From: a virus
Length of the DNA: 34,468 nt
Direction: 5' to 3' (one strand)
Virus record (IMG/VR): IMGVR_UViG_3300045988_066560
Location: 1-34,468 of that record
Positions 4,191 through 31,273 of the stretch are shown here, in pieces. How positions within the stretch are numbered: position 1 is the first letter of the stretch; each line of letters starts with the position of its first letter. The notes under the pieces are model-generated. The model ran no database searches and was not told the origin of the DNA. It worked only from the letters and a program-made list of their open reading frames with translations. The position numbers and the translations under genes were made by a program.

Positions 4191-5348
4191 TTATGTGCTG
4201 TTTTTTTCTGCTGTTAAGTCATTTGTATAGTTCTTAGTCACAACTCTCTGTGTAGAAAACTCTGTTCCCAATTCCTCCCAGCCTACCATTCTAAAGATTT
4301 CATCCAGATTGAAACCGATTGCTCTAAGCTTATCCAGATTAGCAGCGCTTTCGATAATATCCACGTGCTTGTATCCGGACATATCAATCCAAATCTTTTC
4401 GCCTTTTAGGTAGTCAGCCTGTCCTACCAGCTTTGCATTTAAAGAGTCATTCAAAACTTCTACTACCCAGCTTACTGCGTATGTAATGAATTCATTTGTA
4501 CTGTCCGCCTTTTCTGTAATCTCTCCCAAAAATACAGCTTTCGGTATATCAAACGCAAGAGCGCACTCCACAAAGATTTCATGTGCAATCTTTGTCAGGT
4601 CTTCTGTACTTACGTTATTTGTAATCTTTAGCTCTCCTACGGAAAGTGTATCTTGATTTTTAATAATCTCTACTTTATCAGATGTTAAAAGTTTCTTAAT
4701 ATTATTCTTATATTCATCTTCTGTAAGCACTTTTTCTGTTCCATCAGGGTTCTTTGTTCGCATTATTTGTTGTACGCCCTGTGTTCTTAATTCAAATTTA
4801 GGGGTGCTGGAAATCCTCTTTGCTTCGCTTAACGCATCTAAAATTTTGTCGTATTGACCAAGCACTTTTTTCAGATATGTTTTAATTTTTTCGTTTCTGC
4901 TTCTAAGGTGTATGACCTCATCTGCATAAAATGTTCTATCCAGATGCAAGCTGTTACCATTCGATGTAATGACAACATTTGTATACCTCTGCTTTAGGAC
5001 TACGGATGTATCTACATTCCATGAGTCTGCAATATATAGACTTTTCCCTATTCTGCAAATCACACATTCTGTCTCTATCAATAACTTTTTTACGGCTTCT
5101 ATCCAAAAATCCGTTGCCGTTTCATTCTCATTCGCCTTTACATTCAGCATATAATAAATATCGTCTTTTACTCTTCCGTTTTTTCTCTGTACAACAAATT
5201 CACTTTTTGCCACAGCTTTCGCAATCATGCTGATTGCTTTTTCGATTGCCAGTTTTGATATATGCAGTTCTGTAATATTTGCGGATATGCTTTCCATAAC
5301 CGACTCTACTTTTCCTTTTTTGCTCCATGTAAAATCAAACATACACAA
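4191..5348 (-). CDS. Portal protein (HK97 family)
   Basis: 385 aa between the large terminase and the prohead protease. Overlaps the TerL stop. Confidence 0.85.
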   Translation of the reverse strand: MCMFDFTWSKKGKVESVMESISANITELHISKLAIEKAISMIAKAVAKSEFVVQRKNGRVKDDIYYMLNVKANENETATDFWIEAVKKLLIETECVICRIGKSLYIADSWNVDTSVVLKQRYTNVVITSNGNSLHLDRTFYADEVIHLRSRNEKIKTYLKKVLGQYDKILDALSEAKRISSTPKFELRTQGVQQIMRTKNPDGTEKVLTEDEYKNNIKKLLTSDKVEIIKNQDTLSVGELKITNNVSTEDLTKIAHEIFVECALAFDIPKAVFLGEITEKADSTNEFITYAVSWVVEVLNDSLNAKLVGQADYLKGEKIWIDMSGYKHVDIIESAANLDKLRAIGFNLDEIFRMVGWEELGTEFSTQRVVTKNYTNDLTAEKNST

Positions 5349-8158: not shown

Positions 8159-8265
8159 ATTTCCTCCTGCATAAAAAAGTGTCTTCGACACTTCAACTCC
8201 CCTGCCCCTCAATCTTTGAGGGGTTGGGGCTTTCTTTTTCCTTCCCTATCTGTCATAATACTCTC

Positions 8266-9417
8266 ATGAATATACTTCAAAAAATTTTTACCGACTATTA
8301 TGAAGAAATTAAATATACCCTCCATCCCAGAAAAACGGAAATGGAAAACATTGATAAAATGATCCACTGCGGTGATCCTTCCTTCGGCGGTGCCATGTAT
8401 GCCTGCACCCACTGCGGTAACCTAAAATTCGTTCCTTTCCGCTGTCACAGCCGCTTTTGCCCTACCTGCGGCATCAAATATTCCATGGAGCGCTCTACCA
8501 GCATGGCTTTCAAACTCATACAGTCCAGCCATCGCCACTGTGTTTTTACCATTGACAAAAACCTTCGGGATTTCTTTCTCAAAGACCGCACACTCCTTGA
8601 CTGCCTTTTTCATTCCGTCAACAGTGTCGTCTCCCGTATGTTTTTCAAAATCAATCAATCCAAAAATTTTACCCCCGGCTTTCTCATGGTTTTGCATACC
8701 TTTGGCAGGGATCTCAAATGGAACCCTCACATTCACTGCCTTATTTCCGAAGGCGGTCTTAGTGATGATGGACTCTGGAAACCCGTAAAGCATTTTAACT
8801 ACACCTTTCTTCGGAATGCTTTCCGCACCGCTCTCCTCAATGAGATGGAAACTCTCCTCGGTTCTTCTTTTAAAAAAGTAAAAGCCAAATGTTATGATGA
8901 ACACAAGCAGGGCTTCTATGTTTATGCCAGACCAAACCTCTGTGACCCTAAAGCAGTCATCCGCTATATTGGCCGGTATCTTGGCCGACCTGTCATCGCC
9001 GTCTCCAGAATTGACTCCTATGATGGCGAAATGGTGACTTTTCATTATAACCGCCATGAGGATGATCAATATATACAGGAAACTATTCCTGCCATGGATT
9101 TCATAAAAAGGCTGATCCGCCATATCCCCGAAAAGCACTTTAAAATGATCCGTTATGGCGGCTTATATGCCAGACACAGAAAAACAGATGCAAAACTCTA
9201 CCGGGCTATCCCCAAAAGCAGGCACCGCATTTACCGAAGCTTCAACCTGTGGCGCAATGCCATTCTTTCTTCCTTCGGCTATGATCCTTTGGAATGTCCC
9301 GGCTGCAGGCACAAAATGGAGTTCCTGGAACTTTATTATAATCACCAACGCGTATCCCTCGAAGAACTTTATGAGAAAGCAATGTCCAAATTTCTCGGAA
9401 AGCGTTCTTCTGCATGA
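8266..9417 (+). CDS. tnpA: IS91-family transposase
   Basis: N-terminal zinc-binding region HCGD...CTHCG...RCHSRFCPTCG. HUH block LHTFGRDLKWNPHIHCLISEGG. Y2 block IRYIGRYLGRPVIAVSRI. FIKRLIRHIPEKHFKMIRYGG. The likely start is the MNILQ ATG at 8266. Confidence 0.9.
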   Translation: MNILQKIFTDYYEEIKYTLHPRKTEMENIDKMIHCGDPSFGGAMYACTHCGNLKFVPFRCHSRFCPTCGIKYSMERSTSMAFKLIQSSHRHCVFTIDKNLRDFFLKDRTLLDCLFHSVNSVVSRMFFKINQSKNFTPGFLMVLHTFGRDLKWNPHIHCLISEGGLSDDGLWKPVKHFNYTFLRNAFRTALLNEMETLLGSSFKKVKAKCYDEHKQGFYVYARPNLCDPKAVIRYIGRYLGRPVIAVSRIDSYDGEMVTFHYNRHEDDQYIQETIPAMDFIKRLIRHIPEKHFKMIRYGGLYARHRKTDAKLYRAIPKSRHRIYRSFNLWRNAILSSFGYDPLECPGCRHKMEFLELYYNHQRVSLEELYEKAMSKFLGKRSSA

Positions 9418-9813: not shown

Positions 9814-9886
9814 TCGGAGATGCTGGGTTTGAACCAGCGACTTGCTGTGTATAAGACAGGTGCTCTACCAACTGAGCTAATCTCCG
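9814..9886 (-). tRNA. tRNA with anticodon TAT (tRNA-Ile UAU by anticodon), 73 nt, no encoded CCA
   Basis: Hand-folded cloverleaf. The 7-bp acceptor stem is CGGAGAT/ATCTCCG. D arm GCTC-AGTTGGTA-GAGC. Anticodon arm CCTGT-CTTATAC-ACAGC (one C-C mismatch at 27:43). T arm GCTGG-TTCAAAC-CCAGC. U8, A14, G18G19, T54T55C56 and A58 are present. Confidence 0.8.
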
Positions 9887-14999: not shown

Positions 15000-15455
15000 T
15001 TAACTAAATGGCAGTTCTTCATCAATTCCATCCGGGATATTCATGAAGCCATCTGCGTCCACAGTTGTTCCTGTGTTTCCGATCGTCTGTCCTGCTGCCG
15101 TGTTGCTTTGTGCATTGCTATTTCCTGCTGCGTTATTTTTACTTTCGGCAAATTCCTGTTCTTCTACAACTACATCTGTTGTATAGACTTTGTTCCCATC
15201 TCTGTTTGTATAGCTTCCAGTCTGAATTCTGCCACTTACTACAATACGGATACCTTGACGGAAGTATTTTTCGGCAAATTCTGCTGCCTTTCCGAAGGCA
15301 ACGCAACTAATAAAGTCTGCTGTTGCTTCGCCCTCTCTTTTTATTCTTCGGTCTACTGCCAGTGTATATCTGGCAATTCCCATTGGATTATCTCCGGCTG
15401 TATAATGTACATTTGGGTCTCTGGTTAATCTGCCCATTAAAATTACTTTATTCAT
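15000..15455 (-). CDS. ssb: Single-stranded DNA-binding protein
   Basis: OB-fold N-terminus MNKVILMGRLTRDP...ADFISCVAFGKAAEF...GRIQTGSY and an acidic C-terminal tip DGIDEELPFS. Confidence 0.92.
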   Translation of the reverse strand: MNKVILMGRLTRDPNVHYTAGDNPMGIARYTLAVDRRIKREGEATADFISCVAFGKAAEFAEKYFRQGIRIVVSGRIQTGSYTNRDGNKVYTTDVVVEEQEFAESKNNAAGNSNAQSNTAAGQTIGNTGTTVDADGFMNIPDGIDEELPFS

Positions 15456-15461
15456 GGTTTT

Positions 15462-16889
15462 TTACCCCTTCTGTATCTCTTTTATAAATTCTACAAGCTC
15501 TGTTTCGCTGTTCGGATATCTGCTGTACTTCTCGTGCTTCGTCCACTTTGGAATTCCGCTTTTTCTTGGTGGTTCTGTTCCTCCTACGAGATGAAAGTAA
15601 GAACTTATGTATGTTCCTGTGTATTCATTTTCGTTTTCGTATTCCTCTACAATCAGGGTTGCTCCATTTTCGAACTGGTATCTGTAGTATGTAGTTCCTA
15701 TATGTTCATCTTTATACCAGATGCCCCATTCTTTATAATTTCTAATCCATTCTTTTCTTTGGTCGTTATTTTTAAGTTTTGGAAGAGGAGGTTGGACTGG
15801 TTCCGGAAACTCGTTATCAAGTTCTGCAATCATTCCGGCCAATGCACCAACGATTAGTTTCTGTTTCCGTACCCGTATGTCTTTTTCTGTAAACTCCTCC
15901 GAAAGCATTGTTAAGTATCTTTGTGCTTTTTCTAGCTCTTCTTTTAAAAGCTCTATATCGGTCCGCTCAGTTGTCTGTTCATATTTTTCTGTCTGTTGCT
16001 CCATCTTTACAGCTTCGGTCTGTAATTCTTCTTTTACTTCCTGTTGCAGTTCGGCTTCTTCATTCTGTTGCGCCAGCGCAACAGGTTTGTTTTGCAATTC
16101 TTCTTGTGTTTCCTGCTGCACTTCCGGCGATATCTCCTCCGGTTCTGCTGCTTTTTTCCTAAGCCCTTCTAGCGCAATATTATTCCACATAGATTGGATT
16201 GCCGCCGCAAGATAGAACCAGTCGTAGTCTCCTATATAGTTGCTTTTCTCATCCCATAGCTGTACATAATCATCAAACAAGTTTGCGTGAGCTACTCCTC
16301 TTTCTGTGGAGAAGTACCGTGTTCTATGATTTATGCCCAGTTTTCTTTTTATCTCTTCTGGACTCTTATTTACCATCAGCACCCTGTTTGTATAATCCTC
16401 CAAAAACCAGCTATACATACTTTTAATTAAATGTTCGGCCAGTAACTTCAGATATTCTCTCTCCTGCTCGCTTGGTTTCTTTAATATTGTTTTCTTTTTT
16501 TCCTGGACTTCCTCCGGAAGCATTTCCGGATAGTCTTCAATACTCATCTGGCCTTCCAAATTTTCTTCTTGATTTTGAGGTTTTCGAATTTCTCTAATTT
16601 CTTTTGCTGTCATTTCCGGTTTCGCCTGTTCTATTTGCTTATCGTCCAGATACAGCATTTCCTGTAACTGGCTTTTCCCAAAAGAAGCAAACTCTTGTCT
16701 TAATTCCGGAGAGTTCCCACCCTCGGAGAATTTATCATTCATGTGCATCCATCTGCTGCAAGTGCTTTTACTTATTCCGTAGGTGTCCTGTGCAAATTCC
16801 CATATACTTTCAAATCCATCCTGTATATAAAGTTTCTTGTCACGAATGTATTTGAGATAATAGCCTATAGTTATAAATTTCTTAGACAT
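15462..16889 (-). CDS. HTH DNA-binding protein with long E/Q-rich coiled-coil. Possible replication organiser or ParB-like protein
   Basis: N-terminal IGYYLKYIRDKKLYIQDGFESIWEFAQDTYGISKSTCSRWM resembles plasmid/phage HTH domains. Located next to ssb and rep. Confidence 0.4.
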   Translation of the reverse strand: MSKKFITIGYYLKYIRDKKLYIQDGFESIWEFAQDTYGISKSTCSRWMHMNDKFSEGGNSPELRQEFASFGKSQLQEMLYLDDKQIEQAKPEMTAKEIREIRKPQNQEENLEGQMSIEDYPEMLPEEVQEKKKTILKKPSEQEREYLKLLAEHLIKSMYSWFLEDYTNRVLMVNKSPEEIKRKLGINHRTRYFSTERGVAHANLFDDYVQLWDEKSNYIGDYDWFYLAAAIQSMWNNIALEGLRKKAAEPEEISPEVQQETQEELQNKPVALAQQNEEAELQQEVKEELQTEAVKMEQQTEKYEQTTERTDIELLKEELEKAQRYLTMLSEEFTEKDIRVRKQKLIVGALAGMIAELDNEFPEPVQPPLPKLKNNDQRKEWIRNYKEWGIWYKDEHIGTTYYRYQFENGATLIVEEYENENEYTGTYISSYFHLVGGTEPPRKSGIPKWTKHEKYSRYPNSETELVEFIKEIQKG

Positions 16890-16964: not shown

Positions 16965-17237
16965 TCACTTTTGTATCCAGCCTTCTACGATGCACTTATC
17001 GTCTGTTTTTGCTCTTGGTAATCTTGCATAAAATCCACTTTTACGCACATCTTCCCTGCATTCTTCCACTGTTTTTCTCAAAATGCAGAACGGTGTCGGT
17101 TCCCCTGTTTTTGCATTAAATACCCTTGCTACGCATTTCTCCGGAAAATCCAATGGTCTTTTATAGATAACCACCATGGGAATAGGTATTTCTTTCCAGT
17201 CCATTTCTTTTAAGCTGTTAATCACTTTGTTTTTCAT
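16965..17237 (-). CDS. Hypothetical protein (90 aa)
   Basis: ORF in the operon chain. Confidence 0.5.
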   Translation of the reverse strand: MKNKVINSLKEMDWKEIPIPMVVIYKRPLDFPEKCVARVFNAKTGEPTPFCILRKTVEECREDVRKSGFYARLPRAKTDDKCIVEGWIQK

Positions 17238-17640
17238 TTTTCTCCTTCATTTCTCTTAAAATCCAATCAGAATAAGTGTGTTTGCCTACTTCCACGTTTA
17301 CTTCATGCTCTTGTATTACCTCCCACAGAGCTTTCCATTCTTCCTGATTTTTAACCGATTTAAAACCGTCTCTTGCCCATATTTTCATCTTGTCTCTTAC
17401 CGCATAAAGGACAAATTGATTTCCGGAATAAATGCAGATTTTGCATGGTTCATGTACTCTTTTTAAAGCTTCTGTCAGAGTTTTTAAAATTTCCTGATTG
17501 TATGTGCCTTTTCCGGTTCGGAAACCTTCTCTTGTTATAGGAGTCTTGCCTTTTATGTATTCCAGCACATAACCGCAGCTTCTCTCTTTCTTCTGGAAGG
17601 CTGTGTTACTGGTCTCTATGTATATATTTATGCTTTTCAC
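17218..17640 (-). CDS. RNase H-like fold protein (divergent RNase HI)
   Basis: By-eye alignment to E. coli RNase HI: INIYIETS vs VEIFTDGS, YNQEILKTLTEAL vs NNRMELMAAIVAL, ICIYSGNQF vs ILSTDSQY. Confidence 0.5.
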   Translation of the reverse strand: MKSINIYIETSNTAFQKKERSCGYVLEYIKGKTPITREGFRTGKGTYNQEILKTLTEALKRVHEPCKICIYSGNQFVLYAVRDKMKIWARDGFKSVKNQEEWKALWEVIQEHEVNVEVGKHTYSDWILREMKEKNEKQSD

Positions 17641-18363
17641 TTACCCGCCCTCCTTAATGAGTGTGTAATAGATAAATTCATATCCATCCGCCGTTATTCC
17701 TTCTCTTAAACTATCTTTATCCAGATACCAGCCGGCAGGAACTTTAATTTCCTTTGAAAATTGATTTCCTTTCATTTTCTGTTTCTTCGGTACCGGACGA
17801 ATGAGGTTCTTGCTTGGATTATAAGATTTCTTCTGTATCTGCTCGTTGGTTTCCCTTGTTTTCTGGAAGTATTTAATAAAATACTCTGCCAGTCTCCTGT
17901 ACTGCCCACTTCTCTCCATTGGTTTCATGGTAGTCCATCCGTGTGACCAAATGTCCCTTAACTTCCTTGCATCTATCGGACTTAAAACCATGTGTATATG
18001 TGCTCCCCCTCGTTTTCCTACTTCTGCAGTCCAGACATATTTCAGGATCAGGTTCTCCTTTTTGTAAATATCCCTTATCTTTCGTAGTAGCTTCTGCTCG
18101 TGCTGATGCAATTCCTTTATGCTCTGTGGACGCAGCTCTTTTTTATAGTCAAAGGTCACATACCAGCAATCTTTATTAAAATTGGCATTCAACAGGCGAG
18201 TTAATCTTTTTACCAGATGTCTGTCATTTATTTTTTGTTGCTGTTCCGTGGTAGGGTTTACCCTCGCCCTTCTTTTCCTTCCTTTTGGCTGCAACCAGTA
18301 AGTGTAATACTTGGATATCTCCTTTGTCTTTCCTGCCTTACACACCATCTTCATGTATGGCAT
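17641..18363 (-). CDS. HUH-superfamily rolling-circle replication initiator-like protein
   Basis: HUH motif GGAHIHMVL. Upstream block TTEQQQKINDRHLVKRLTRLLNANFNKDCWYVTFDY resembles Rep ORF2/G2P-type proteins. Tyr-containing YFIKYF. The ATG at 18363 has AGGAGGA 6 nt upstream, whereas the track start at 18450 has none. Confidence 0.6.
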   Translation of the reverse strand: MPYMKMVCKAGKTKEISKYYTYWLQPKGRKRRARVNPTTEQQQKINDRHLVKRLTRLLNANFNKDCWYVTFDYKKELRPQSIKELHQHEQKLLRKIRDIYKKENLILKYVWTAEVGKRGGAHIHMVLSPIDARKLRDIWSHGWTTMKPMERSGQYRRLAEYFIKYFQKTRETNEQIQKKSYNPSKNLIRPVPKKQKMKGNQFSKEIKVPAGWYLDKDSLREGITADGYEFIYYTLIKEGG

Positions 18364-18407
18364 TTTCTGTCCTCCTGTCGAAACTGTAATAAACTTAGCA
18401 AGTCTAA

Positions 18408-18440
18408 AACGGGCTTTTCTGCCCGTTATTTTCTTGATTT
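18408..18440 (+). terminator. GC-rich hairpin plus T-tract in the rep leader (plus-strand terminator geometry; possible attenuator on the minus strand)
   Basis: AACGGGC-TTTTCT-GCCCGTT followed by ATTTTCTTGATTT. Confidence 0.45.
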
Positions 18441-18462
18441 CGGAAGCCATATATGCTATACT
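18434..18462 (+). promoter_or_regulatory. Sigma-A-type promoter on the plus strand, antisense to the rep leader
   Basis: -35 TTGATT (18434-18439), 17-nt spacer, TGc-extended -10 TATACT (18457-18462). Confidence 0.55.
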
Positions 18463-18468
18463 TTTTGT

Positions 18469-18527
18469 AGGCTTAAAGTTTCATATATGACTTACCCGGA
18501 GCGTGTCTCTCCGGGCTTTTCTTTTTT
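18469..18527 (+). ncRNA. Predicted short antisense RNA (about 55-60 nt) opposite the rep mRNA leader
   Basis: Defined by the promoter at 18434-18462 and the strong terminator at 18495-18530. No ORF. Confidence 0.4.
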
Positions 18528-18530
18528 ATT
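18495..18530 (+). terminator. Strong rho-independent terminator (plus strand)
   Basis: CCCGGAG-CGTGTCT-CTCCGGG followed by CTTTTCTTTTTTATTT. Confidence 0.7.
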
Positions 18531-18741
18531 TGATTTGTACAAAATTATGTCCCACTGCTCTGGTATGCTTGTACTCTCTTTTTCCCATAAAGTTTCCTTT
18601 TCCTCCGTGACTCCCATAGAATTGGTCTATAAGATTGAAACTTTCTAAAGTAAGGGATGTTATTCCGTGTCTCTCTTTAATCCGTTCTATCTCGGAAAAT
18701 ACAGGTAAGAGTTCTTTTTCTAATTGTGTAAATTCTCCCAT
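18526..18741 (-). CDS. Hypothetical protein (71 aa)
   Basis: ORF in the early operon chain. Confidence 0.5.
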   Translation of the reverse strand: MGEFTQLEKELLPVFSEIERIKERHGITSLTLESFNLIDQFYGSHGGKGNFMGKREYKHTRAVGHNFVQIK

Positions 18742-18769
18742 TGCTTTTTTCTCCGTATTCTTGTATAAT
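18741..18769 (+). promoter_or_regulatory. Candidate plus-strand promoter
   Basis: Perfect -10 TATAAT (18764-18769), 17-nt spacer, -35 TTGCTT (18741-18746). Confidence 0.4.
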
Positions 18770-18789
18770 GGACTTGTTAATTAAATTCC

Positions 18790-18999
18790 CTAGTCCGCAT
18801 GAGTTCTATCTCTGCGGGCTTTTTTCTTTAACAACATTTCCCATTCTCTTACTTTCTCGATAGACCAGAACAGCATATATGTAACCATCCCTACTCCAAA
18901 TATCTGTCCTAAAAGGCTCATATCTTCGGGAATTTTAAAAACTGTGTTAAATAACAGTGCTGTCCCCAGAATTGCTTGTGTTAAGCTTTCACTGTGCAT
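18790..18999 (-). CDS. Small membrane protein (two hydrophobic helices, basic C-terminal tail)
   Basis: AILGTALLFNTVF and LLGQIFGVGMVTYMLFWSI, followed by LLKKKARRDRTHAD. Confidence 0.55.
   Translation of the reverse strand: MHSESLTQAILGTALLFNTVFKIPEDMSLLGQIFGVGMVTYMLFWSIEKVREWEMLLKKKARRDRTHAD
18793..18830 (+). terminator. Strong rho-independent terminator (plus strand) embedded in the 3' end of the minus-strand membrane-protein gene
   Basis: GTCCGCA...TGCGGGC stem (7 bp with one G-U) plus an inner GAG/CTC extension, followed by TTTTTTCTTT. Confidence 0.6.
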
Positions 19000-19018
19000 G
19001 GCTTGTCCTTCCTTTCTT

Positions 19019-19042
19019 ACCGCACTAGGCGGTCTTTCTTTT
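19019..19042 (+). terminator. Short hairpin plus T-tract (plus-strand terminator geometry)
   Basis: ACCGC-ACTAG-GCGGT followed by CTTTCTTTTG. Confidence 0.35.
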
Positions 19043-19171
19043 GTAAAACGCCAAAATTATTCTGGATACATTATCAACAATATTTTTAATCTCTTCTTCC
19101 GAAGTATTTTTTGAAAAATCGTCTCGTACCTCTATTTTGTTTTCTCCTTTATTTTCTTTTAAGAGCACCAT
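19025..19171 (-). CDS. Hypothetical small protein (48 aa)
   Basis: The internal ATG at 19171 is preceded by AAGGAGG. The longer track ORF would overlap the upstream gene by 62 nt. Confidence 0.45.
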   Translation of the reverse strand: MVLLKENKGENKIEVRDDFSKNTSEEEIKNIVDNVSRIILAFYKRKTA

Positions 19172-19217
19172 AGAGCCACCTCCTTGTTTTATGGTATGCT
19201 GTTCTTCTTGTCTATGT

Positions 19218-19439
19218 TTATGTAGGATGTATTTTAATCTTTGACACTTCCTCACGGTATCTTTGCATCGCTTTTCCAATTAGAGCCACTCCTGCATCAT
19301 TGTTGTTCCATCTTTCTTCTCTCATACGTGCGTCTATTGCTTTCTTTAATTCCCCGTATGTTTTACACTGGGATTTCATCTTCCTATATAATCGATCTGC
19401 TTCTGTTTCCAGCATTTCTTCAATTTTTGTTATTTCCAT
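19218..19439 (-). CDS. Hypothetical protein (73 aa), first gene of the leftward early cluster after the divergent region
   Basis: ORF with GAGG upstream. Confidence 0.5.
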   Translation of the reverse strand: MEITKIEEMLETEADRLYRKMKSQCKTYGELKKAIDARMREERWNNNDAGVALIGKAMQRYREEVSKIKIHPT

Positions 19440-19486
19440 ATTCCTTTACCTCACTTTCTTTTCCAGTACCTTTGTATCTTTTGTAC

Positions 19487-19515
19487 TTGCCATTTTCTCT
19501 TGATTTCCCTATACT
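19487..19515 (+). promoter_or_regulatory. Plus-strand sigma-A-type promoter for the 85-aa membrane protein gene
   Basis: -35 TTGCCA (19487-19492), 17-nt spacer, -10 TATACT (19510-19515). Confidence 0.55.
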
Positions 19516-19553
19516 TTAAAATAATCATTTTAAGCAGAAAGGAAGTATGACTT

Positions 19554-19811
19554 ATGCCGCCTTATAAATTTACACCTGAGTACACTGAACTCTCCTCAAT
19601 CAAGAAAGAGTTGCGCCCTTTGGAAGATATTGCATCTTCCGCTGAAACAATTGCCAATTCTGCTAAAACTCAATCTGAACTTGCAGTCGAAAAATCAAAG
19701 AAAGCTGACATAAAAGGTTGGATTGCAGTTGGTATTTCTGCGTTTGCTCTTCTAATAGAAATTATTTGTAATTACGAGCAAATTGCTGATTTTTTTAGCA
19801 AATTATTTTAA
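19554..19811 (+). CDS. Small C-terminally membrane-anchored protein (85 aa), moron-like
   Basis: Has its own promoter, an AAGGAAG RBS and its own terminator. TM segment GWIAVGISAFALLIEIICNY. Confidence 0.6.
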   Translation: MPPYKFTPEYTELSSIKKELRPLEDIASSAETIANSAKTQSELAVEKSKKADIKGWIAVGISAFALLIEIICNYEQIADFFSKLF

Positions 19812-19872
19812 TACAAAATTAGAAATTAAAACAATTATCAGGGTAATAATAGAAAATACCAATCCTACATCT

Positions 19873-19908
19873 GAAACCGTTATTTTTGACGGTTTCTTTT
19901 CTTTCTTG
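19873..19908 (+). terminator. Rho-independent terminator (plus strand)
   Basis: GAAACCGT-TATTTTTG-ACGGTTTC followed by TTTTCTTTCTT. Confidence 0.7.
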
Positions 19909-20129: not shown

Positions 20130-20345
20130 CTACTCTGGAATAATAGATGTTTTAATTGCATTACATTCCTTATATATCTGTGGAATTAACATTTCGGTAT
20201 CCATTTCAGCAAGGAAGTTTCCTTCAAAATCCCAGTATTGTATTACCTCACGTACTGGGTCTTTTTCTGTTCCCAGTCCTCTTTTTGCTTTTGTCTCTAT
20301 AACCTGTATAACTTTTGCACTCTTTGTTCCATTAGCTCTATTCAT
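20130..20345 (-). CDS. Hypothetical protein (71 aa)
   Basis: The ATG at 20345 is preceded by GGGGTGAG. ORF in the leftward chain. Confidence 0.5.
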   Translation of the reverse strand: MNRANGTKSAKVIQVIETKAKRGLGTEKDPVREVIQYWDFEGNFLAEMDTEMLIPQIYKECNAIKTSIIPE

Positions 20346-20349
20346 TTTT

Positions 20350-20386
20350 CTCACCCCACTTTCTTTTCCATGAAGTCCCTAATTTT
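20350..20386. repeat. 37-nt direct repeat, copy A (33/37 identical to 21073-21109)
   Basis: ctcaccccactttcttttccatgaagtccctaatttt versus ctcaccctgctttcttttccatggagtccctgatttt. Confidence 0.85.
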
Positions 20387-20388
20387 CC

Positions 20389-20417
20389 TTGTAATTCGCT
20401 ATATTTTTTCCTATACT
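20389..20417 (+). promoter_or_regulatory. Plus-strand promoter for the zinc-ribbon gene
   Basis: -35 TTGTAA (20389-20394), 17-nt spacer, -10 TATACT (20412-20417). Confidence 0.5.
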
Positions 20418-20468
20418 TTACTTACAGGCTCCCGCCAGAGCCGAGTAATTTACGAAAGGATTATTTTT

Positions 20469-20939
20469 ATGTCTTATGGTTATGTCACAATTTGCCTTAA
20501 TGGGCATATCGTAAGTAAGTATAATGCCAATCATCAGAAATATTGTTCTCAATGCGGAGCAGAAACTTACTCTTTCTGTCCTAAATGCCAAACACATATA
20601 CGTGGAATTTTTAGTGCTCCTGGGGTAATACTGATAGGAGAGCAGCCTTATGAACTTCCTCACTATTGTCATGAATGTGGTTCTCCTTATCCTTGGACAC
20701 AGAAAATACTTGATAATTCCATTGAACTTCTAGCCTTAGATGATGATTTAGACGACGAGTCTAAAGAACTAATCAAAAATGCTATTCCGGAATTAATCGT
20801 CGATGTTCCAACTACTCCTATTGCTATTGCAAAATATAGAAAAGGAATATCTGCTTGCGGGCAAATTTTAAAAGACTCCTTACGCCAGCTTCTTATTGAT
20901 ATTGTAAGTGAAACGACTAAAAAGGCTTTATTCCCGTAG
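20469..20939 (+). CDS. Multi-zinc-ribbon protein with acidic helical C-terminal domain (DUF2321-like from memory), moron-like
   Basis: The ATG at 20469 has a GAAAGGA RBS. CLNGH, CSQCG, CPKC and CHECG pairs. Opposite orientation to the flanking genes. Confidence 0.6.
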   Translation: MSYGYVTICLNGHIVSKYNANHQKYCSQCGAETYSFCPKCQTHIRGIFSAPGVILIGEQPYELPHYCHECGSPYPWTQKILDNSIELLALDDDLDDESKELIKNAIPELIVDVPTTPIAIAKYRKGISACGQILKDSLRQLLIDIVSETTKKALFP

Positions 20940-21399: not shown

Positions 21400-21427
21400 A
21401 AAAAATAAGCCGGGATTTCTCCCGGCT
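21400..21427 (-). terminator. Rho-independent terminator of the lysis operon
   Basis: Minus strand AGCCGGGA-GAAA-TCCCGGCT followed by TATTTTTTAT. The stem overlaps the endolysin stop codon. Confidence 0.8.
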
Positions 21428-22262
21428 ATACTAATGCCCCTCTGTCATTTGTTCTTGCCATGCGTCCGTCACTCAAAAATGCGTACAGCTCATTTCCAAT
21501 CCACAGCATTTCATCTCTTGCCATGTATCCGCCGTCTTTTAACCAGTACCAGGCATCTCCCTCTTTGTACCAGTTGTTTTCCAGCATTGCGCCGTCTGGC
21601 TGTAAATAAAACCAATTTCCGTTTACATACGCCCATCCGGTACGCATCGCTCCCCATTTATCCATATAATACCAGTGGTTTTCGATTTTATGCCAGCCCT
21701 CTGTATACATATAGCCACTGCCGTCAAAATAATACCAAATTCCGTTAATCTTTTCCCAGTTATTTGTTGTATAGCTGCCGTCTGCGTGCCTATACCACCA
21801 GCCTGTGCTATCTTGTACCCAACGGTCTGTTTCTCCGTTTACAATAGCCTCAAAGGGAAAATTATCTCCGGGACAATTTGTAGGGTTTACATCTTTATGC
21901 TTCTGTACCTTTGTAATGCCATATTTGCTTTTTAAAGAGGCAATAAGCTCTTTTCCTGCGTTAATCTGTGCCTGTCCCATGCGTTCTGTCATAAATGCCC
22001 CTTCGAAACAGATGCCAATACTGTCGGAATTGCATCCGGTAGCGTGTGCTCCTACTGTATCCTCCGGTCTTCCCCTCTCGATTGTGCCGTCTTTTCTAAC
22101 TAAAAAGTGGTAGCCCATGCCAGCCCATCCACGTTCCTTATGCCAGCGGTGGATATCCTGCGCAGAGCATTTAGACGCATCGGCATTATGTAAGATAATA
22201 CGTGTTGTTTTGCTTCTTTTGCTTAAAGAGCCAAATTTTAAGTTTGTTTCTACAATATTCAT
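21426..22262 (-). CDS. Endolysin: N-acetylmuramoyl-L-alanine amidase (Amidase_2/PGRP) plus C-terminal cell-wall-binding repeats
   Basis: ILHNADASKCSAQDIHRWHKERGWAGMGYHFLV...GAHATGCNSDSIGICFEG, then aromatic repeats GWWYRHADGSY, NGIWYYFDGSGYM, NHWYYMDKWGAM, NGNWFYLQPDGAM, GDAWYWLKDGGYM. Strong RBS. Confidence 0.9.
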   Translation of the reverse strand: MNIVETNLKFGSLSKRSKTTRIILHNADASKCSAQDIHRWHKERGWAGMGYHFLVRKDGTIERGRPEDTVGAHATGCNSDSIGICFEGAFMTERMGQAQINAGKELIASLKSKYGITKVQKHKDVNPTNCPGDNFPFEAIVNGETDRWVQDSTGWWYRHADGSYTTNNWEKINGIWYYFDGSGYMYTEGWHKIENHWYYMDKWGAMRTGWAYVNGNWFYLQPDGAMLENNWYKEGDAWYWLKDGGYMARDEMLWIGNELYAFLSDGRMARTNDRGALV

Positions 22263-22275
22263 AGTTCTTTCCTCC

Positions 22276-22728
22276 TTAATCTACAACTTCCCACTCTTCA
22301 GAAAACAGCTCAATCATAGTTTCTTTCCACGGAACACGTCCAAATCTACTTTCTACATACAGATACGGAGCTGTCATTTTGCTATTTTCGTCTGGAAATT
22401 GTGCACGGATAACCACATCTGGTTTCCAATTTGGTAATCGCATTCCCATCCCACGCTTTACCAGTTTTAAGGCATCCCCAAAACTCATTCTTGCTTTTCC
22501 TCCCAAAATTGGTGTGTTTTCAGCGTTGGCAATCATAAATTCGTTGGATGCTATGTTGTCAAAGGTGTATTCCGGTCTTTGGGTATCTAAAAGGCGCATT
22601 ACATCCCCTTCTTTTGTATGCATAATAATTTCGCCGTTTTCCCACGCCCAAAAACCTGCCCAATTTGGCAGTTTCACTTTATTCCCTGCTTTCATTTCTT
22701 TCAGTGCTTCTCTAAAATTCATTCCCAT
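22276..22728 (-). CDS. Tandem DUF2829 / Tad2-like domain protein (150 aa)
   Basis: Two internal repeats begin MNFREALKEMKAGNKVKLPNW and MSFGDALKLVKRGMGMRLPNW. The second ends PYLYVESRFGRVPWKETMIELFSEEWEVV. The ATG at 22728 has an AAAGGAAAA RBS. Confidence 0.6.
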   Translation of the reverse strand: MGMNFREALKEMKAGNKVKLPNWAGFWAWENGEIIMHTKEGDVMRLLDTQRPEYTFDNIASNEFMIANAENTPILGGKARMSFGDALKLVKRGMGMRLPNWKPDVVIRAQFPDENSKMTAPYLYVESRFGRVPWKETMIELFSEEWEVVD

Positions 22729-22762
22729 ATCGTTTTCCTTTCTGCTGTTGCGCCAGCGCAAT

Positions 22763-29405: not shown

Positions 29406-31273
29406 TAAAACGCACCTTCTTTCGTATTTCCCCCTACGACTATGCCATTTACTAGCTCTACAAATGTTCCATCGGAAAATTCCAGTCTTCCGGTTTTTGC
29501 AAGCTTGCCATTTACATCCAGTTCTCCGGCGCTTATTCCCACAGCATCTCCGTCTTTTCTTACCCAAAATCCCCCTTGGTAAGAGTCTTTTGGTGTTCCT
29601 CCTGTAAAAGCGGTGTAGCTCGGCCAACCGCTCGGAAGACCTTCCGGTGTGCTCGGTAAGCTTCCACAGCAATGGACGCTTGCAATTACATCTCCATCCA
29701 CTCCCAATATTTCAAGATTTCCACCGTTAAACCGGAACCCTCTTTCCACTCTTCCAATTGCAGATGTCTCAATTAAGAGTTGTGCTGCTTTTATAATTCC
29801 TTTATTTAAGTCCAGTTTAAAACCTTCTAAGCCCTCTATGTAATTTTCCGACATTAGCTCCCCACCACGGATGCGGTCTGCAAACATTGTTCCGGCCACA
29901 ATCAAATCTGCGGCAAAGCCTTGCCCTGTTCCAAATGTTTTCCAATCCCATTCTCTTCCGTCTACTGTTCTTTTGCTTGCAATCTGGAAGCCCATAGTGC
30001 CTAAGCATAAGGCTCCGTATGTCGGTGATTGCTCATCTAAATCCTCAAAAAGCACTGCTCTTACATTGCTTTTTCTTGCAGCACTGCTCTGCGCTCTCAT
30101 TTGTGCTTTAACGCCATCTATTAAGCCTTGTATCTGCTCTCCTACTACAGTTCCGTCTGGCCGTATAGCGTTATCTATTCGGTTCGCTGCACTTGTTATA
30201 TTGTTAAAATAATTGTATTTGTAATCTCCCAGTTCTACTTGCGTAGTTTTCTTTTTTAAGCAGTCGTATTCCAATTCAATTACCCTTGCATCTGTGGTAA
30301 TTCCAAGCTTACTGTGCTTGCAATGCACCGCGTCTCCCAACCCTACTTTTTCTAGCTCTTTGTATTCTCTGTATTCTTCTGTATTTTCCAGTAATACAAT
30401 TTCTACAGACATGGAAAGCTTTGGCTTGTCAATTCCGCTTTCGTACTGCTGTCGGCATTTTTCTTCCAGAGCCTTATCTAATTCTTTCTGTGTTTCGCAA
30501 ATAATTACTCCGTTTGCTCTGTCTTCTTCTGATGCATCCTGTTGCATTTTTACATCATCGAAGGTCATTGTAGCAATCTTTACAGTCGGGTACTTGTTAA
30601 TCAATTCAGAATCTACAGGGTTAGTGCTCTTGTATCCGTTGTAGGCCTTTGGGAAAATTCTTGTTACTACTTCCCTTGTATCAACTTCTTCCTGTATTCC
30701 ATCCTTTTTAATATTCTTCCCGTAAAGTATTTGCACTCCGTAATCATTTCCTTGTTTCTTATTCACAATTATTTCGTAATTATTAAAAAAGATTTCTCCG
30801 CCCCAGCGATTTATAAAAGAGTTGTCCTCGTTGCCATTTAAAGCTTCGATAAAATTTTTGTATTCATAGTAGGCGGTGCTTCGCACTGTAATATCTGATT
30901 CCGCGCTGTATTTTCTGTTTGGCGCAAGCATGAGATTAAGGGCTTCTTGTCCTGTCTTGTTTGTTGGTCGGATGTCTTCCAAAAAGCAATCCTCTCTTGC
31001 ATCCATAAAAATAGGTTCCGCAGTGGCAGTGACTCCTGTCTCCGCTTTTTCTGTATGCTTAATTCGAAACAACTGTTCTCCGTTAAAAGACGGTACTTTT
31101 ACTACAGCTTCTTCTGTAATATATTTCCATCTGCCTTCTCCGTCTATTGGATGTTGCAGTTCTAAGTTCCATGCTCCGTTTAATGTAGCGTGCACAAGTG
31201 CTTTTTCTGGAAGCAAAGGCATATCTCCATTTGCTTCAAAATTCGTGTTCTCTGGCTTATAAATCTGTATCAT
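29405..31273 (-). CDS. Tail-associated lysin / tail tip protein (Tal, prophage tail endopeptidase-like)
   Basis: 622 aa following Dit. TAATG coupled start at 31273. Confidence 0.7.
   Translation of the reverse strand: MIQIYKPENTNFEANGDMPLLPEKALVHATLNGAWNLELQHPIDGEGRWKYITEEAVVKVPSFNGEQLFRIKHTEKAETGVTATAEPIFMDAREDCFLEDIRPTNKTGQEALNLMLAPNRKYSAESDITVRSTAYYEYKNFIEALNGNEDNSFINRWGGEIFFNNYEIIVNKKQGNDYGVQILYGKNIKKDGIQEEVDTREVVTRIFPKAYNGYKSTNPVDSELINKYPTVKIATMTFDDVKMQQDASEEDRANGVIICETQKELDKALEEKCRQQYESGIDKPKLSMSVEIVLLENTEEYREYKELEKVGLGDAVHCKHSKLGITTDARVIELEYDCLKKKTTQVELGDYKYNYFNNITSAANRIDNAIRPDGTVVGEQIQGLIDGVKAQMRAQSSAARKSNVRAVLFEDLDEQSPTYGALCLGTMGFQIASKRTVDGREWDWKTFGTGQGFAADLIVAGTMFADRIRGGELMSENYIEGLEGFKLDLNKGIIKAAQLLIETSAIGRVERGFRFNGGNLEILGVDGDVIASVHCCGSLPSTPEGLPSGWPSYTAFTGGTPKDSYQGGFWVRKDGDAVGISAGELDVNGKLAKTGRLEFSDGTFVELVNGIVVGGNTKEGAF

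Follow-up and report, generated by a model that had tools for sequence, protein, structure and literature searches.

The window analysed here, a 34,468-nt stretch of viral DNA, carries on its minus strand (17641..18363) the gene for a 240-aa HUH rolling-circle initiator, rep, with the motifs HIHMV and EYFIKY (YxxxY). In profile searches the protein matches PF23343 (REP_ORF2-G2P) with an E-value of 4e-16 and phrog_3584 with an E-value of 1e-52, and 33 homologues without exception keep the residues H122, H124, Y161 and Y165. Rep thus combines the HUH motif with the catalytic tyrosines, as the cognate initiator of a phiX174/pC194-type origin should. The start codon is the ATG at 18363 on the minus strand, a choice supported by the PHROG 3584 match, which covers the longer ORF only from its residue 29 onwards, and it is preceded by the Shine-Dalgarno sequence AGGAGGA (18370..18376, minus strand). 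Genes for an SSB and an RNase H lie downstream of rep, and none of the ORFs scanned around rep matches a primase or replicative helicase family.

The non-coding leader of rep, 18364-18525 (approximately 162 nt), reaches the stop codon of a 71-aa ORF of the early operon (18526..18741, minus strand), with which rep appears to be co-transcribed. A sense-strand promoter comparable to the antisense promoter described below is absent from all 32 leaders examined (260-nt leader). The rep mRNA would therefore have to cross the antisense unit, and we infer that it arises by read-through from upstream. A sense promoter at the conserved ACTTGATAAGTTTATTA was weighed and rejected, as its TTGATA and TATTAT boxes are just 4 nt apart and none of the lineages yields a scoring sense promoter.

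On the opposite strand of the leader a predicted antisense promoter is found at 18434..18462 (plus strand), which by its sequence is of the housekeeping-sigma type (sigma-70/sigma-A). It consists of a -35 box TTGATT (18434-18439), a 17-nt spacer with a TG at 18454-18455, and a -10 box TATACT (18457-18462); the weak -35 box is compensated by the extended -10 box (TGcTATACT). Downstream, at 18495..18527 on the plus strand, lies a putative intrinsic terminator, hairpin 1, formed by CCCGGAG-N7-CTCCGGG (18495-18515) and trailed by CTTTTCTTTTTT. Its T-run (18517-18527) overlaps the stop codon of the 71-aa ORF, and on the sense strand no U-run follows the hairpin. From this geometry we predict an antisense RNA (ctRNA) of about 58 nt, 18469..18526 on the plus strand, in which a single-stranded 5' tail of 26 nt precedes the terminator hairpin and its U-run. 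The predicted RNA has a folding energy of -14.9 kcal/mol, contains no ORF and could pair without a mismatch to the polycistronic early mRNA bearing rep. Its end lies over 100 nt upstream of the rep Shine-Dalgarno sequence. The preliminary description of this DNA, made from the letters alone, had listed the rep start, its Shine-Dalgarno sequence, the leader, the promoter, the terminator and a second hairpin, and all of these were found in place.

Within this window alone the antisense unit is barely above chance. The region holds no excess of promoter-like sites (29 versus 22.8 +/- 4.5 expected), and in the whole window there are three units of a promoter followed by a terminator, versus 0.9 +/- 0.95 in shuffled sequences. 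The convincing significance of the unit comes instead from its conservation in relatives. Rfam searches with ctRNA and antisense families (ctRNA_pT181, ctRNA_pND324, RNAI, CopA and others) gave nothing at the gathering thresholds in the whole window, and nothing at E<=10 in 18300-18900 either. The sole sub-threshold hit was RF02923, the HTH-XRE motif, which was reportedly described by Weinberg et al. in 2017, at 18380-18439 on the minus strand (19.5 bits, E=0.09-0.39). Membership was rejected, as the gathering threshold is 49.8 bits; the likeness in architecture is a lead only, and RF02923 was not found at E<=0.1 in ten relatives. As to composition, the plus strand is T-rich, with an AT skew of about -0.28, and of 13 terminator-like hits in the region 11 fall on the plus strand, although the minus strand carries the genes. 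Gene callers lay spurious small ORFs across the antisense element, e.g. CS5676_0051.

A nucleotide search with 17000-19500 against 50,697 phage records gave no match, and relatives were reached via Rep protein searches. About 45 distinct relatives, with Rep identities from 100% down to 32-36%, keep the promoter unit. The carriers are prophages of human and animal gut Lachnospiraceae, and a cultured relative with the full module is Clostridium phage phiCs5676-1 from C. scindens DSM 5676. Every unit-bearing lineage has the pattern TTGACT-17-TAnnnT on the plus strand. The spacer is 17 nt throughout, except for 16 nt in one locus, and its own sequence is variable; the invariant alignment columns coincide exactly with TTGAC in the -35 box and T-A...T in the -10 box. 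The terminator (GC hairpin plus T-run) was detected in most lineages 29-40 nt past the -10 box, giving predicted RNAs of 53-68 nt. The same Rep and origin also occur without the antisense unit, for instance in Butyrivibrio phage Arawn and in the clades L056-L078 and L037-L051. The unit was never found away from the origin.

RNAalifold on a MAFFT alignment of 33 leaders finds no consensus helix because MAFFT misaligns the variable hairpins. All helix statistics therefore come from per-sequence helix searches with shuffled controls, and the shuffle-based counts overstate independence because the lineages share phylogeny. The pairing of hairpin 1 is kept across 32 distinct stems, with 345 Watson-Crick pairs, 21 G·T pairs on the plus strand and only 3 on the minus strand (p=3e-4). 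The excess of plus-strand wobbles indicates that hairpin 1 works in a plus-strand RNA. A promoter-terminator unit complementary to the rep leader, as the preliminary description proposed, is thus borne out at the level of sequence signals by the fixed promoter spacing, the 32 pairing stems and the wobble bias; likewise, the comparative check on the hairpins and the promoter that it put forward finds the promoter conserved in about 45 relatives, most of them with a detected terminator, and compensatory changes in the stems. Judged by these signals, there is hardly any doubt that the unit is genuine and conserved as a transcription unit, with a predicted product of about 55-65 nt that complements the rep leader.

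The other half of the leader has the appearance of a replication origin. Hairpin 2, AACGGGC-N6-GCCCGTT, is found at 18408..18427 on the minus strand; read on the plus strand, it is a hairpin with a T-run directly upstream of the antisense -35 box. It is adjoined at 18387..18405 on the minus strand by the pattern ACTTG(N)TAAG...ATTA, present in the window as a single exact copy, AGACTTG/CTAAGTTTATTA (the slash marks the predicted nick, between 18399 and 18398 on the minus strand). The phiX174 counterpart is CAACTTG/ATATTAATAAC, with the rep_origin annotated at 4306, and the pC194 origin is similar, ...ATCTTGATAATAAGG (PMC7072734). Based on this likeness and on its conservation we predict that the motif is the nick site of the double-strand origin (dso). 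The form ACT[TC]G[ACT]TAA...ATTA is found in 80 out of 86 non-redundant loci, 40-90 nt upstream of rep. A GC hairpin precedes it in 78 of these 80 loci, compared with 10 of 80 shuffled controls, at a median of 6 nt ahead of CTTG; the hairpin ends 1-8 nt 5' of the nick-like motif. The distance from the promoter to the nick motif is 26-30 nt in nearly all of the about 45 loci, the two outliers having 18 and 51 nt.

The pairing of hairpin 2 is kept across 33 distinct stems, and here the wobbles favour the rep-sense strand (15 versus 4, p=0.02). The hairpin occurs even in the clades without the antisense unit. Because it is universal, bound to the nick-like motif and biased towards rep-sense wobbles, hairpin 2 reads as a part of the origin, probably the hairpin recognised by Rep on the nicked strand. 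The predicted substrate of Rep is accordingly the minus-strand hairpin 2 with AGACTTGCTAAGTTTATTA, cut after ...CTTG. An alternative offered in the preliminary description, that the two hairpins form the double-strand origin, therefore survives in part: hairpin 2 with the flanking ACTTGCTAAGTTTATTA, unnoticed there, looks like the Rep origin, while hairpin 1 does not look like a part of it. We also considered that the complement of the -35 box (GTCAAG) pairs with the nick core (CTTGAT), giving a duplex promoter in single-stranded DNA, and dropped this because nick-motif variants such as CTCG are uncompensated.

The nick motif and two further complementarities, between segments named A and A' and between A' and the rep start region, go beyond the preliminary description. 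On the rep-sense strand the promoter spacer contains segment A', GCAUAUAUGGCUUCCG (18441..18456, minus strand), and arm A, AAGUCAUAUAUG (18482..18493, minus strand), lies on the rep mRNA opposite the transcribed segment beside the terminator. A' may pair either with arm A or with the start region of rep, the predicted target being the Shine-Dalgarno sequence and codons 1-4. The predicted ctRNA covers arm A completely; in terms of the stem-loop A-A' of the mRNA, its 5' tail corresponds to the loop and to arm A on the 5' side. The complementarity of A and A' exceeds that of shuffled sequences at p<=0.01 in 19 out of 33 lineages (median z 4.1), and the sequences involved differ from lineage to lineage.

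Complementarity of A' to the start region of rep (-22..+18) reaches p<=0.05 in 21 out of 30 lineages. In the same test the loop scores in 3, arm A in 6, hairpin 1 in 1 and the opposite strand in none of the 30. With a strict window around the Shine-Dalgarno sequence and start codon (-15..+13), 16 of 30 lineages are significant at p<=0.05, 12 of them at p<=0.01, compared with 1-5 of 30 for other regions of rep. The duplex between A' and the translation-initiation region (TIR) has an energy of -12.0 kcal/mol in the window and covers GGAG and GCCAUACAUG. Cognate pairs of A' and TIR are more stable than non-cognate ones (-11.6 versus -9.6 kcal/mol), and the two alternative helices are near-equal in stability, with medians of -11.7 and -12.35 kcal/mol. 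The target of A' varies by lineage, being the Shine-Dalgarno sequence or codons 1-4, with different sequences, and in about a third of the lineages the complementarity to the TIR is weak or absent.

The sense leader is strongly structured as RNA (z=-5.6). The A-A' helix, however, shows no strand bias in its wobble pairs (16 versus 18) and has more mismatches than both hairpins, and the absence of a bias counts against a purely sense-RNA helix, where a bias would be expected. Direct pairing of the antisense RNA tail with the rep start region was rejected, as it is enriched in only 1 of 30 lineages. Since the predicted RNA also ends far upstream of the start, any control by it must be indirect, and the complementarities of A' to arm A and to the start region suggest how a distant upstream RNA could still control rep. 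At the 3' end of the A-A' loop we observed TAGCAT or TAGCGT. This recalls the CS-6 element of ssoA (TAGCGT-like), but the TGc of the extended -10 box, read as its reverse complement, accounts for it fully.

The leader would then hold two abutting elements, a dso on the minus strand and an antisense RNA gene on the plus strand. According to our model, the phiX174-type HUH Rep would nick the rep-sense strand at hairpin 2 and the AGACTTG motif. Without antisense RNA, A and A' would be paired and the ribosome-binding site of rep free. If the antisense RNA is made, it would bind A and release A', which could fold onto the Shine-Dalgarno sequence and start codon of rep and so block the translation of Rep. 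The expected sign of the regulation is thus negative, the initiator being under dose-dependent control, and the unit might guard against leaky rep expression in the prophage or limit origin firing. By analogy with small plasmids the antisense RNA probably throttles Rep production. For the complete reading, ctRNA-like control of rep through a three-part translational switch (A, A' and the start region) beside an HUH Rep origin, the sequence comparisons tip the balance slightly in favour.

The same position would also suit a lagging-strand (single-strand) origin, where the RNA, or RNA polymerase on folded single-stranded DNA, primes the conversion of single- to double-stranded DNA. The unit sits where rolling-circle plasmids have their sso, on the displaced strand and a short way upstream of the dso. 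With the nick motif on the minus strand, this strand would be displaced, the unit would be exposed last and the RNA would be complementary to the displaced strand. The rep-sense strand also folds strongly as single-stranded DNA (-25.6 kcal/mol, z=-5.9), ssoA-type origins are recognised and primed by RNA polymerase (PMC5703833, PMC5714925), and the lack of strand bias in A-A' is compatible with pairing at the DNA level. The scan of the ORFs around rep, with no primase or replicative helicase match and with SSB and RNase H genes after rep, agrees with this as well. However, the selection on the displaced strand expected of an ssoA is not seen: hairpin 1 is selected on the plus strand, as an RNA terminator should be, A-A' is neutral, and hairpin 2 alone favours the sense strand. 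The promoter is a canonical duplex promoter, and in the folded single-stranded DNA the spacer alone is duplex, leaving the -10 and -35 boxes as single-stranded template. A primer needs no conserved U-tract terminator, and priming leaves the complementarity of A' to the rep start region unexplained. The idea of primer processing, with the RNase H gene linked to the unit, was rejected, as the presence of the gene does not correlate with that of the unit. We regard a role in priming as unlikely.

It could also be that the act of transcription matters and the RNA does not. In this case the negative supercoils left behind RNA polymerase would assist the extrusion of hairpin 2 and the opening of the nick site, which is 28 bp upstream of the -35 box; or else rep would be shielded from read-through by convergent transcription. 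The tight terminator would do no more than keep transcription confined. HUH Reps require single-stranded DNA at the nick site (PMC5714925), and interference between convergent promoters is known in plasmid rep control (CopR/RNAIII, PMC5703833). The nearly fixed distance of 26-30 bp between the nick motif and the -35 box, together with the strict association of the unit with the origin, would fit such a role, but the distance is simply the size of hairpin 2 and its flanks. The unit is missing from clades with the same hairpin and nick motif, and transcription by itself explains neither the complementarity between the spacer and the transcribed segment nor the match of A' to the rep start. The chance that origin activation or insulation by transcription is the function seems small to us.

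A dual module, in which the same RNA of about 58 nt throttles Rep translation and, annealed to the last-displaced part of the minus strand, primes complementary-strand synthesis as a trans-acting sso, appears rather improbable. If true, a single small RNA would serve both initiator control and lagging-strand priming, and we know of no phage or plasmid for which such an RNA has been described.

In the preliminary description hairpin 2 was suggested as a possible attenuator on the minus strand. Worked out after pT181, binding of the antisense RNA would allow transcription of rep to terminate at hairpin 2, roughly 45 nt ahead of the start codon. This logic is used by pT181 and pIP501 (PMC5703833). 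On the sense strand of the window UUUUAGACUU comes after hairpin 2, and a stretch of 3-4 U residues stands there in roughly half of the lineages, but the U-run is missing in many others, e.g. L009, L016, L022, L099 and L100. Moreover, hairpin 2 has no evident alternative pairing to A' and forms in every predicted fold, and its presence in 78 of 80 loci, including those without the unit, at 1-8 nt from the nick motif ties its role to the origin. The attenuator interpretation is very unlikely and was not retained. That the unit has no dedicated function, its sites being by-products of the T-rich plus strand and of hairpins serving the origin, could draw on the AT skew, the plus-strand excess of terminator-like hits and the modest count of units in the window, but it is already disfavoured and hardly credible, as TTGAC, TAnnnT and the 17-nt spacing persist in relatives whose Rep identities range from 100% to 32%, despite variation in the sequence between the boxes, the terminator stems have undergone compensatory substitutions in which the wobbles favour the plus strand, and the sense strand has no equivalent sites.

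Antisense control of the initiator by a ctRNA is the textbook device for copy control in small rolling-circle plasmids, and the literature searched gives no case of such control in a tailed-phage replication module, nor do we know of one. This prophage family carries a compact, plasmid-like cassette of an antisense RNA gene, a hairpin with a phiX174-like nick site and an HUH rep gene. If the switch model is true, it offers a testable mechanism that keeps a dangerous nicking enzyme silent or dosed in prophages. It would also be an antisense relay of a new type, in which one and the same stretch serves as the spacer of the antisense promoter and, in the mRNA from the opposite strand, as the anti-ribosome-binding-site element. 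In addition, hairpin plus ACTTG/NTAAG would provide a tractable origin definition for the uncharacterised Rep family PF23343.

Among known systems, pMV158 is the closest in the build of the RNA. RNAII has a 17-nt tail, one 8-bp hairpin and a U-run, and the tail beside the hairpin drives binding (PMC4485353). The likeness to rolling-circle plasmid ctRNAs noted in the preliminary description is therefore upheld by the architecture: both RNAs, the phage one by prediction, are small, constitutively promoted, untranslated and opposite the rep mRNA, and both have a single-stranded 5' tail, one hairpin of 7-8 bp with a 6-7 nt loop, which doubles as the intrinsic terminator, and a U-run. The tail segment that nucleates binding in RNAII corresponds to the complement of arm A in the predicted RNA. 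RNAII overlaps and directly blocks the translation-initiation region of repB, whereas the predicted RNA has no such overlap and its effect would be relayed via A'. RNAII also works with the CopG repressor, and no CopG-like partner was identified for the phage unit; there is no sequence or Rfam similarity between the two, and the replicon here is a tailed phage of about 35 kb, not a small plasmid.

The ctRNAs of pT181 and pIP501 bind far upstream in the rep leader and refold it downstream (PMC5703833). The three-partner logic of pT181 RNAI/RNAII and pIP501 RNAIII is the same as that of A, A' and the target. There, however, the inhibitory helix is a transcription terminator, while the predicted phage helix covers the Shine-Dalgarno sequence and start codon, pointing to translational control; hairpin 2 does not provide the ctRNA-dependent terminator with a U-run before rep. 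The Rep of pT181 belongs to the Rep_trans family and is not an HUH protein, and pIP501 uses theta replication. In pC194 and pUB110, antisense RNAs have been predicted in the rep leaders (PMC5703833); they are proposed to cover the translation-initiation region, unlike the phage RNA.

The ssoA and ssoU origins resemble the phage unit in their position upstream of the dso on the displaced strand, their orientation dependence, their strong intrastrand structure and the involvement of the host RNA polymerase (PMC5703833). They differ in that the phage unit has a normal duplex promoter and a hairpin that ends the RNA and is selected on the RNA-like strand. Among phages, lambda OOP RNA and P22 sar RNA are short, have their own promoter and intrinsic terminator and are antisense to the early operon near the replication genes of a temperate phage. 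OOP acts on the 3' end of the cII mRNA by way of RNase III, and the target of sar is ant; neither RNA regulates an HUH initiator or lies against a rolling-circle origin, and neither is homologous to the phage unit.

The nick core itself is common to the phage motif, pC194 (CTTGATAA) and phiX174 (ACTTG/ATA followed by an AT-rich stretch). The YxxxY pair of the phage Rep is phiX174-like, and an HUH initiator with its origin just upstream of rep is the arrangement of pC194, pUB110 and phiX174, although the phage protein belongs to PF23343 and to neither Rep_1 (pC194/pUB110) nor Phage_GPA. Unlike in pC194 and phiX174, the phage nick motif has a GC hairpin a few nucleotides before it. Such a hairpin-before-nick arrangement is more like that of relaxase nic sites.

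The window is a tailed-phage genome of 34.5 kb with nearly every gene on the minus strand, and terminase, portal, capsid, tape-measure protein and endolysin are among its structural and lysis genes. Beyond the endolysin gene (21426-22262) and the terminator downstream of it, an early operon of small ORFs starts from two near-consensus promoters on the minus strand, at about 21376 and 21273. It continues into rep (17641-18363, minus strand), RNase H (17218-17640) and SSB (15000-15455) genes, the last two separated by two ORFs of unknown function. Rep shows matches to PF23343 (REP_ORF2-G2P) and phrog_3584; its HIH motif is invariant, and it has a Y161-x3-Y165 pair like that of phiX174. Its homologues are found in IMG/VR contigs and Lachnospiraceae prophages (e.g. 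Dorea, Sporofaciens, Diplocloster, Eisenbergiella, Parablautia, Faecalicatena); among phages in culture, Butyrivibrio phages Arawn and Idris are related at 37% identity and Clostridium phage phiCs5676-1 (C. scindens) at 34%.

Some other genes deserve mention. An IS91-family Y2 (HUH rolling-circle) transposase gene (8179-9417, PF04986 and PF14319) lies on the plus strand, opposite to the phage genes, adjoining a tRNA gene (9814-9886, minus strand, 67 bits). The transposase gene has probably inserted into the phage genome, and its product is a second HUH enzyme of the same element, unrelated to Rep. The minus-strand ORF 22276-22761, directly upstream of the endolysin gene and transcribed before it, has a Tad2-like (Thoeris anti-defence 2) domain (E=1e-15). 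Within the early region, two plus-strand genes (19487-19896 and 20238-20939) look like morons: one, an 85-aa ORF (phrog_32192), has a promoter of its own (TTGCCA-17-TATACT) and a 10-bp terminator, the other encodes a 233-aa DUF2321/zinc-ribbon protein.

All the elements of an antisense unit that the preliminary description listed in the rep leader were found in place. The plus-strand promoter has TTGATT at 18434-18439, a 17-nt spacer and TGcTATACT ending at 18462. Hairpin 1 (CCCGGAG-N7-CTCCGGG, plus strand, 18495-18515) is followed by a T-run overlapping the stop codon of the 71-aa ORF, while hairpin 2 (AACGGGC-N6-GCCCGTT) is at 18408-18427 and the minus-strand rep ATG at 18363, with AGGAGGA ahead. 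The window sequence in isolation is weak evidence for the unit: a promoter scan found no local enrichment of promoter-like matches around it, and the whole window contains three promoter-then-terminator units, compared with 0.9 +/- 0.95 in shuffles.

The 260-nt stretches preceding rep were compared across 106 related loci. One leader architecture is repeated from 100% Rep identity down to 32-36%. On the rep-sense strand it reads: an A-run, GC hairpin 1, an arm A, an A-rich loop ending in AAAAGTATAGCA, an arm A', GAAAAGTCAAGAAAAT, GC hairpin 2, ACTTG(N)TAAG(N3)ATTA, and the SD with ATG. Read on the opposite strand, the A-rich loop, A' and GAAAAGTCAAGAAAAT form a TTGACT-17-(TGn)TAnnnT promoter, and hairpin 1 with its T-run the terminator. 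Across about 45 distinct loci the promoter spacer is 17 nt with a single exception of 16, and the distance from the -35 box to the conserved motif is 26-30 nt in nearly all (outliers 18 and 51 nt). The terminator, detected in most of them, starts 29-40 nt past the -10 box, giving predicted RNAs of 53-68 nt. In this part of a 33-sequence alignment the columns that never vary are limited to T-A...T (-10 box) and TTGAC (-35 box), and none of 32 leaders has a sense-strand promoter of similar quality.

Hairpin 1 occurs as 32 distinct stems, almost wholly different between lineages, with pairing retained (345 Watson-Crick pairs, 24 wobble-type, 2 other mismatches). In a strand-neutral search its G·T pairs favour the plus strand, 21 to 3 (binomial p=3e-4); therefore hairpin 1 is selected in a plus-strand transcript, as expected of a terminator. 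The lineages compared are mutually related, not independent, and the unit is absent from some clades (Arawn, L037-L051, L056-L078). From these comparisons, it is highly probable that the antisense transcription unit is real. In phiCs5676-1 (L109, OR574845), a 36-aa hypothetical protein, CS5676_0051, is annotated at 1311-1421, exactly over the antisense-RNA/origin module; it is probably a spurious gene call.

Hairpin 2 had been proposed as an attenuator, an idea that lacks support as many lineages lack the U-run on the sense strand. It is best read, together with the motif AGACTTGCTAAGTTTATTA located 3' of it (18405 down to 18387, minus strand), as the double-strand origin, since motif and hairpin are conserved, also in the clades without the antisense unit, and the wobble pairs of hairpin 2 fall mostly on the rep-sense strand (15 vs 4, p=0.02). 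Among 86 non-redundant loci, 80 have the motif upstream of rep, and its exact form is single-copy in the window. In 78/80 loci, compared with 10/80 shuffled controls, CTTG is preceded at a distance of 1-8 nt (median 6) by a GC hairpin with 5 or more bp. The motif core is that of the phiX174 viral-strand origin, CAACTTG|ATATTAATAAC (rep_origin annotated at nt 4306), and of the pC194 origin, ...ATCTTGATAATAAGG... (PMC7072734). The predicted nick falls between 18399 and 18398 of the minus strand.

Four further copies of the motif, each with one mismatch, where about one is expected by chance, are located at 15806-15822 (minus strand) and 18772-18788, 20708-20724 and 30592-30608 (plus strand); they could be secondary Rep sites or coincidence. 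Of the two Rep clades L037-L051 and L056-L078, every locus has rep at about 3001. In L056-L078 the hairpin is lengthened by pairing with the 5' flank of the motif (GTAAG...CTTAC), and in L037-L051 a second GC hairpin follows 3' of it; these may be other ways to control the same origin. A sub-threshold match to the Rfam HTH-XRE RNA, RF02923, covers 18380-18439 on the minus strand (19.5 bits, gathering threshold 49.8), with none in 10 relatives at E<=0.1. The RF02923 consensus, a hairpin then AAGGCUUGCAAAGGUGAUU, parallels hairpin 2 and AGACUUGCUAAGUUUAUUA, and this orphan motif might be a related HUH-Rep origin working as DNA.

The promoter spacer itself, A' (18444-18455), is complementary to A (18482-18493), the transcribed segment abutting the terminator. 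The pairing is kept with unrelated sequences between lineages, for instance CTTTCCACCACACCAA with TTGGTGGGGTGGAAAG in locus L082, and 19 of 33 lineages surpass shuffles at p<=0.01 (median z 4.1). A' lies upstream of the antisense start site, therefore the helix is impossible in the small RNA and requires the rep-sense strand, either mRNA or displaced ssDNA. The predicted fold of that strand contains hairpin 1, A-A' and hairpin 2 (z=-5.6 as RNA, -5.9 as DNA), and A-A' wobbles have no strand bias (16 vs 18).

On the rep mRNA, A' is also complementary to the translation-initiation region. Against -22..+18 the match reaches p<=0.05 in 21/30 lineages (0-6/30 for four control segments), and against the strict SD and start window (-15..+13) in 16/30 (p<=0.01 in twelve), compared with 1-5/30 for three coding windows and the interval from nick to SD. 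About one third of the lineages have no significant match. L086 and L007 have the SD as target, L019, L101 and L026 have codons 1-4, and in the window A' spans both (CUUCC with GGAGG, CAUAUAUGGC with GCCAUACAUG; -12.0 kcal/mol). Cognate pairs are stabler than non-cognate ones (-11.6 vs -9.6 kcal/mol), and the alternative helices of A' are nearly equal (medians -11.7 and -12.35 kcal/mol). The small RNA shows no enriched complementarity to the start region (1/30 lineages). In the window lineage, arm A with its flanks (18478-18494, UAAGUCAUAUAUGAAAC) resembles the rep start (18350-18366, AAUGCCAUACAUGAAGA; both minus strand) at 11 of 17 positions, and comparable A arms, of the form (A)AGCCGUACA against AUGCCGUACA, occur in several more lineages; arm A could have originated as a duplicate or mimic of the start region.

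These pairings fit a proposed three-partner switch between A, A' and the rep start region. A would hold A' sequestered; the antisense RNA, perfectly complementary to the A-A' loop and A, would capture A, and A', once free, would cover the rep SD and AUG. The unbiased A-A' wobbles, the third of lineages without a significant start-region match, the relatedness of the lineages and the clades lacking the unit weaken this model. The fixed 26-30 bp spacing also agrees with transcription activating or insulating the origin, but this accounts for neither the A-A' nor the A':start-region complementarity. A single-strand origin or primer would explain why the unit lies upstream of the origin on the displaced strand and why the ssDNA folds strongly; it is contradicted by the plus-strand selection of hairpin 1, the conserved U-tract of the terminator, a promoter of the canonical duplex kind with -10 and -35 boxes that would be unpaired in folded ssDNA, and an RNase H gene not linked to the unit. 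Pure chance is excluded by the conservation pattern. Working through such a switch, the antisense RNA could silence the nicking initiator in the prophage, or limit origin firing in proportion to template number.

Eleven of 13 terminator-like sites in the early region are oriented against the genes. A second plus-strand antisense unit (18741-18830) is found in the next intergenic region, with TTGCTT at 18741-18746, a 17-nt spacer, a perfect TATAAT at 18764-18769 and a hairpin at about 18795-18821 before TTTTTT. Its promoter overlaps the translation start of the 71-aa ORF (SD and start codon), and the motif copy at 18772 (GGACTTGTTAATTAAATTC) lies within it on the strand opposite to the nick motif. 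The unit is kept in L001 and L002, where the stem has changed compensatorily, and also in L003, with a different hairpin. A third intergenic hairpin (19019-19033, plus strand, ACCGCACTAGGCGGT) has a plus-strand T-run, with no recognisable plus-strand promoter upstream. The early operon of these phages may use several small antisense RNAs.

We found no description of a comparable cassette in a tailed-phage replication module in the literature searched, and no Rfam antisense family matches the unit; the cassette is readily testable, as phiCs5676-1 and C. scindens are a cultured phage-host pair. The putative origin belongs to the phiX174/pC194 kind, to which it adds an obligatory 5' hairpin. The resemblance to plasmid ctRNA control noted in the preliminary description holds for the general type, and the unit seems to work like a rolling-circle plasmid ctRNA system. 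It belongs neither to the pMV158 type, because the antisense RNA does not overlap the start region, nor to the pT181 type, because a conserved terminator is lacking. The predicted antisense RNA, a tail plus a single hairpin, is built as pMV158 RNAII, in which the tail beside the hairpin nucleates binding (PMC4485353), and the switch logic would be that common to pT181 and pIP501 attenuation (PMC5703833), here at the level of translation.
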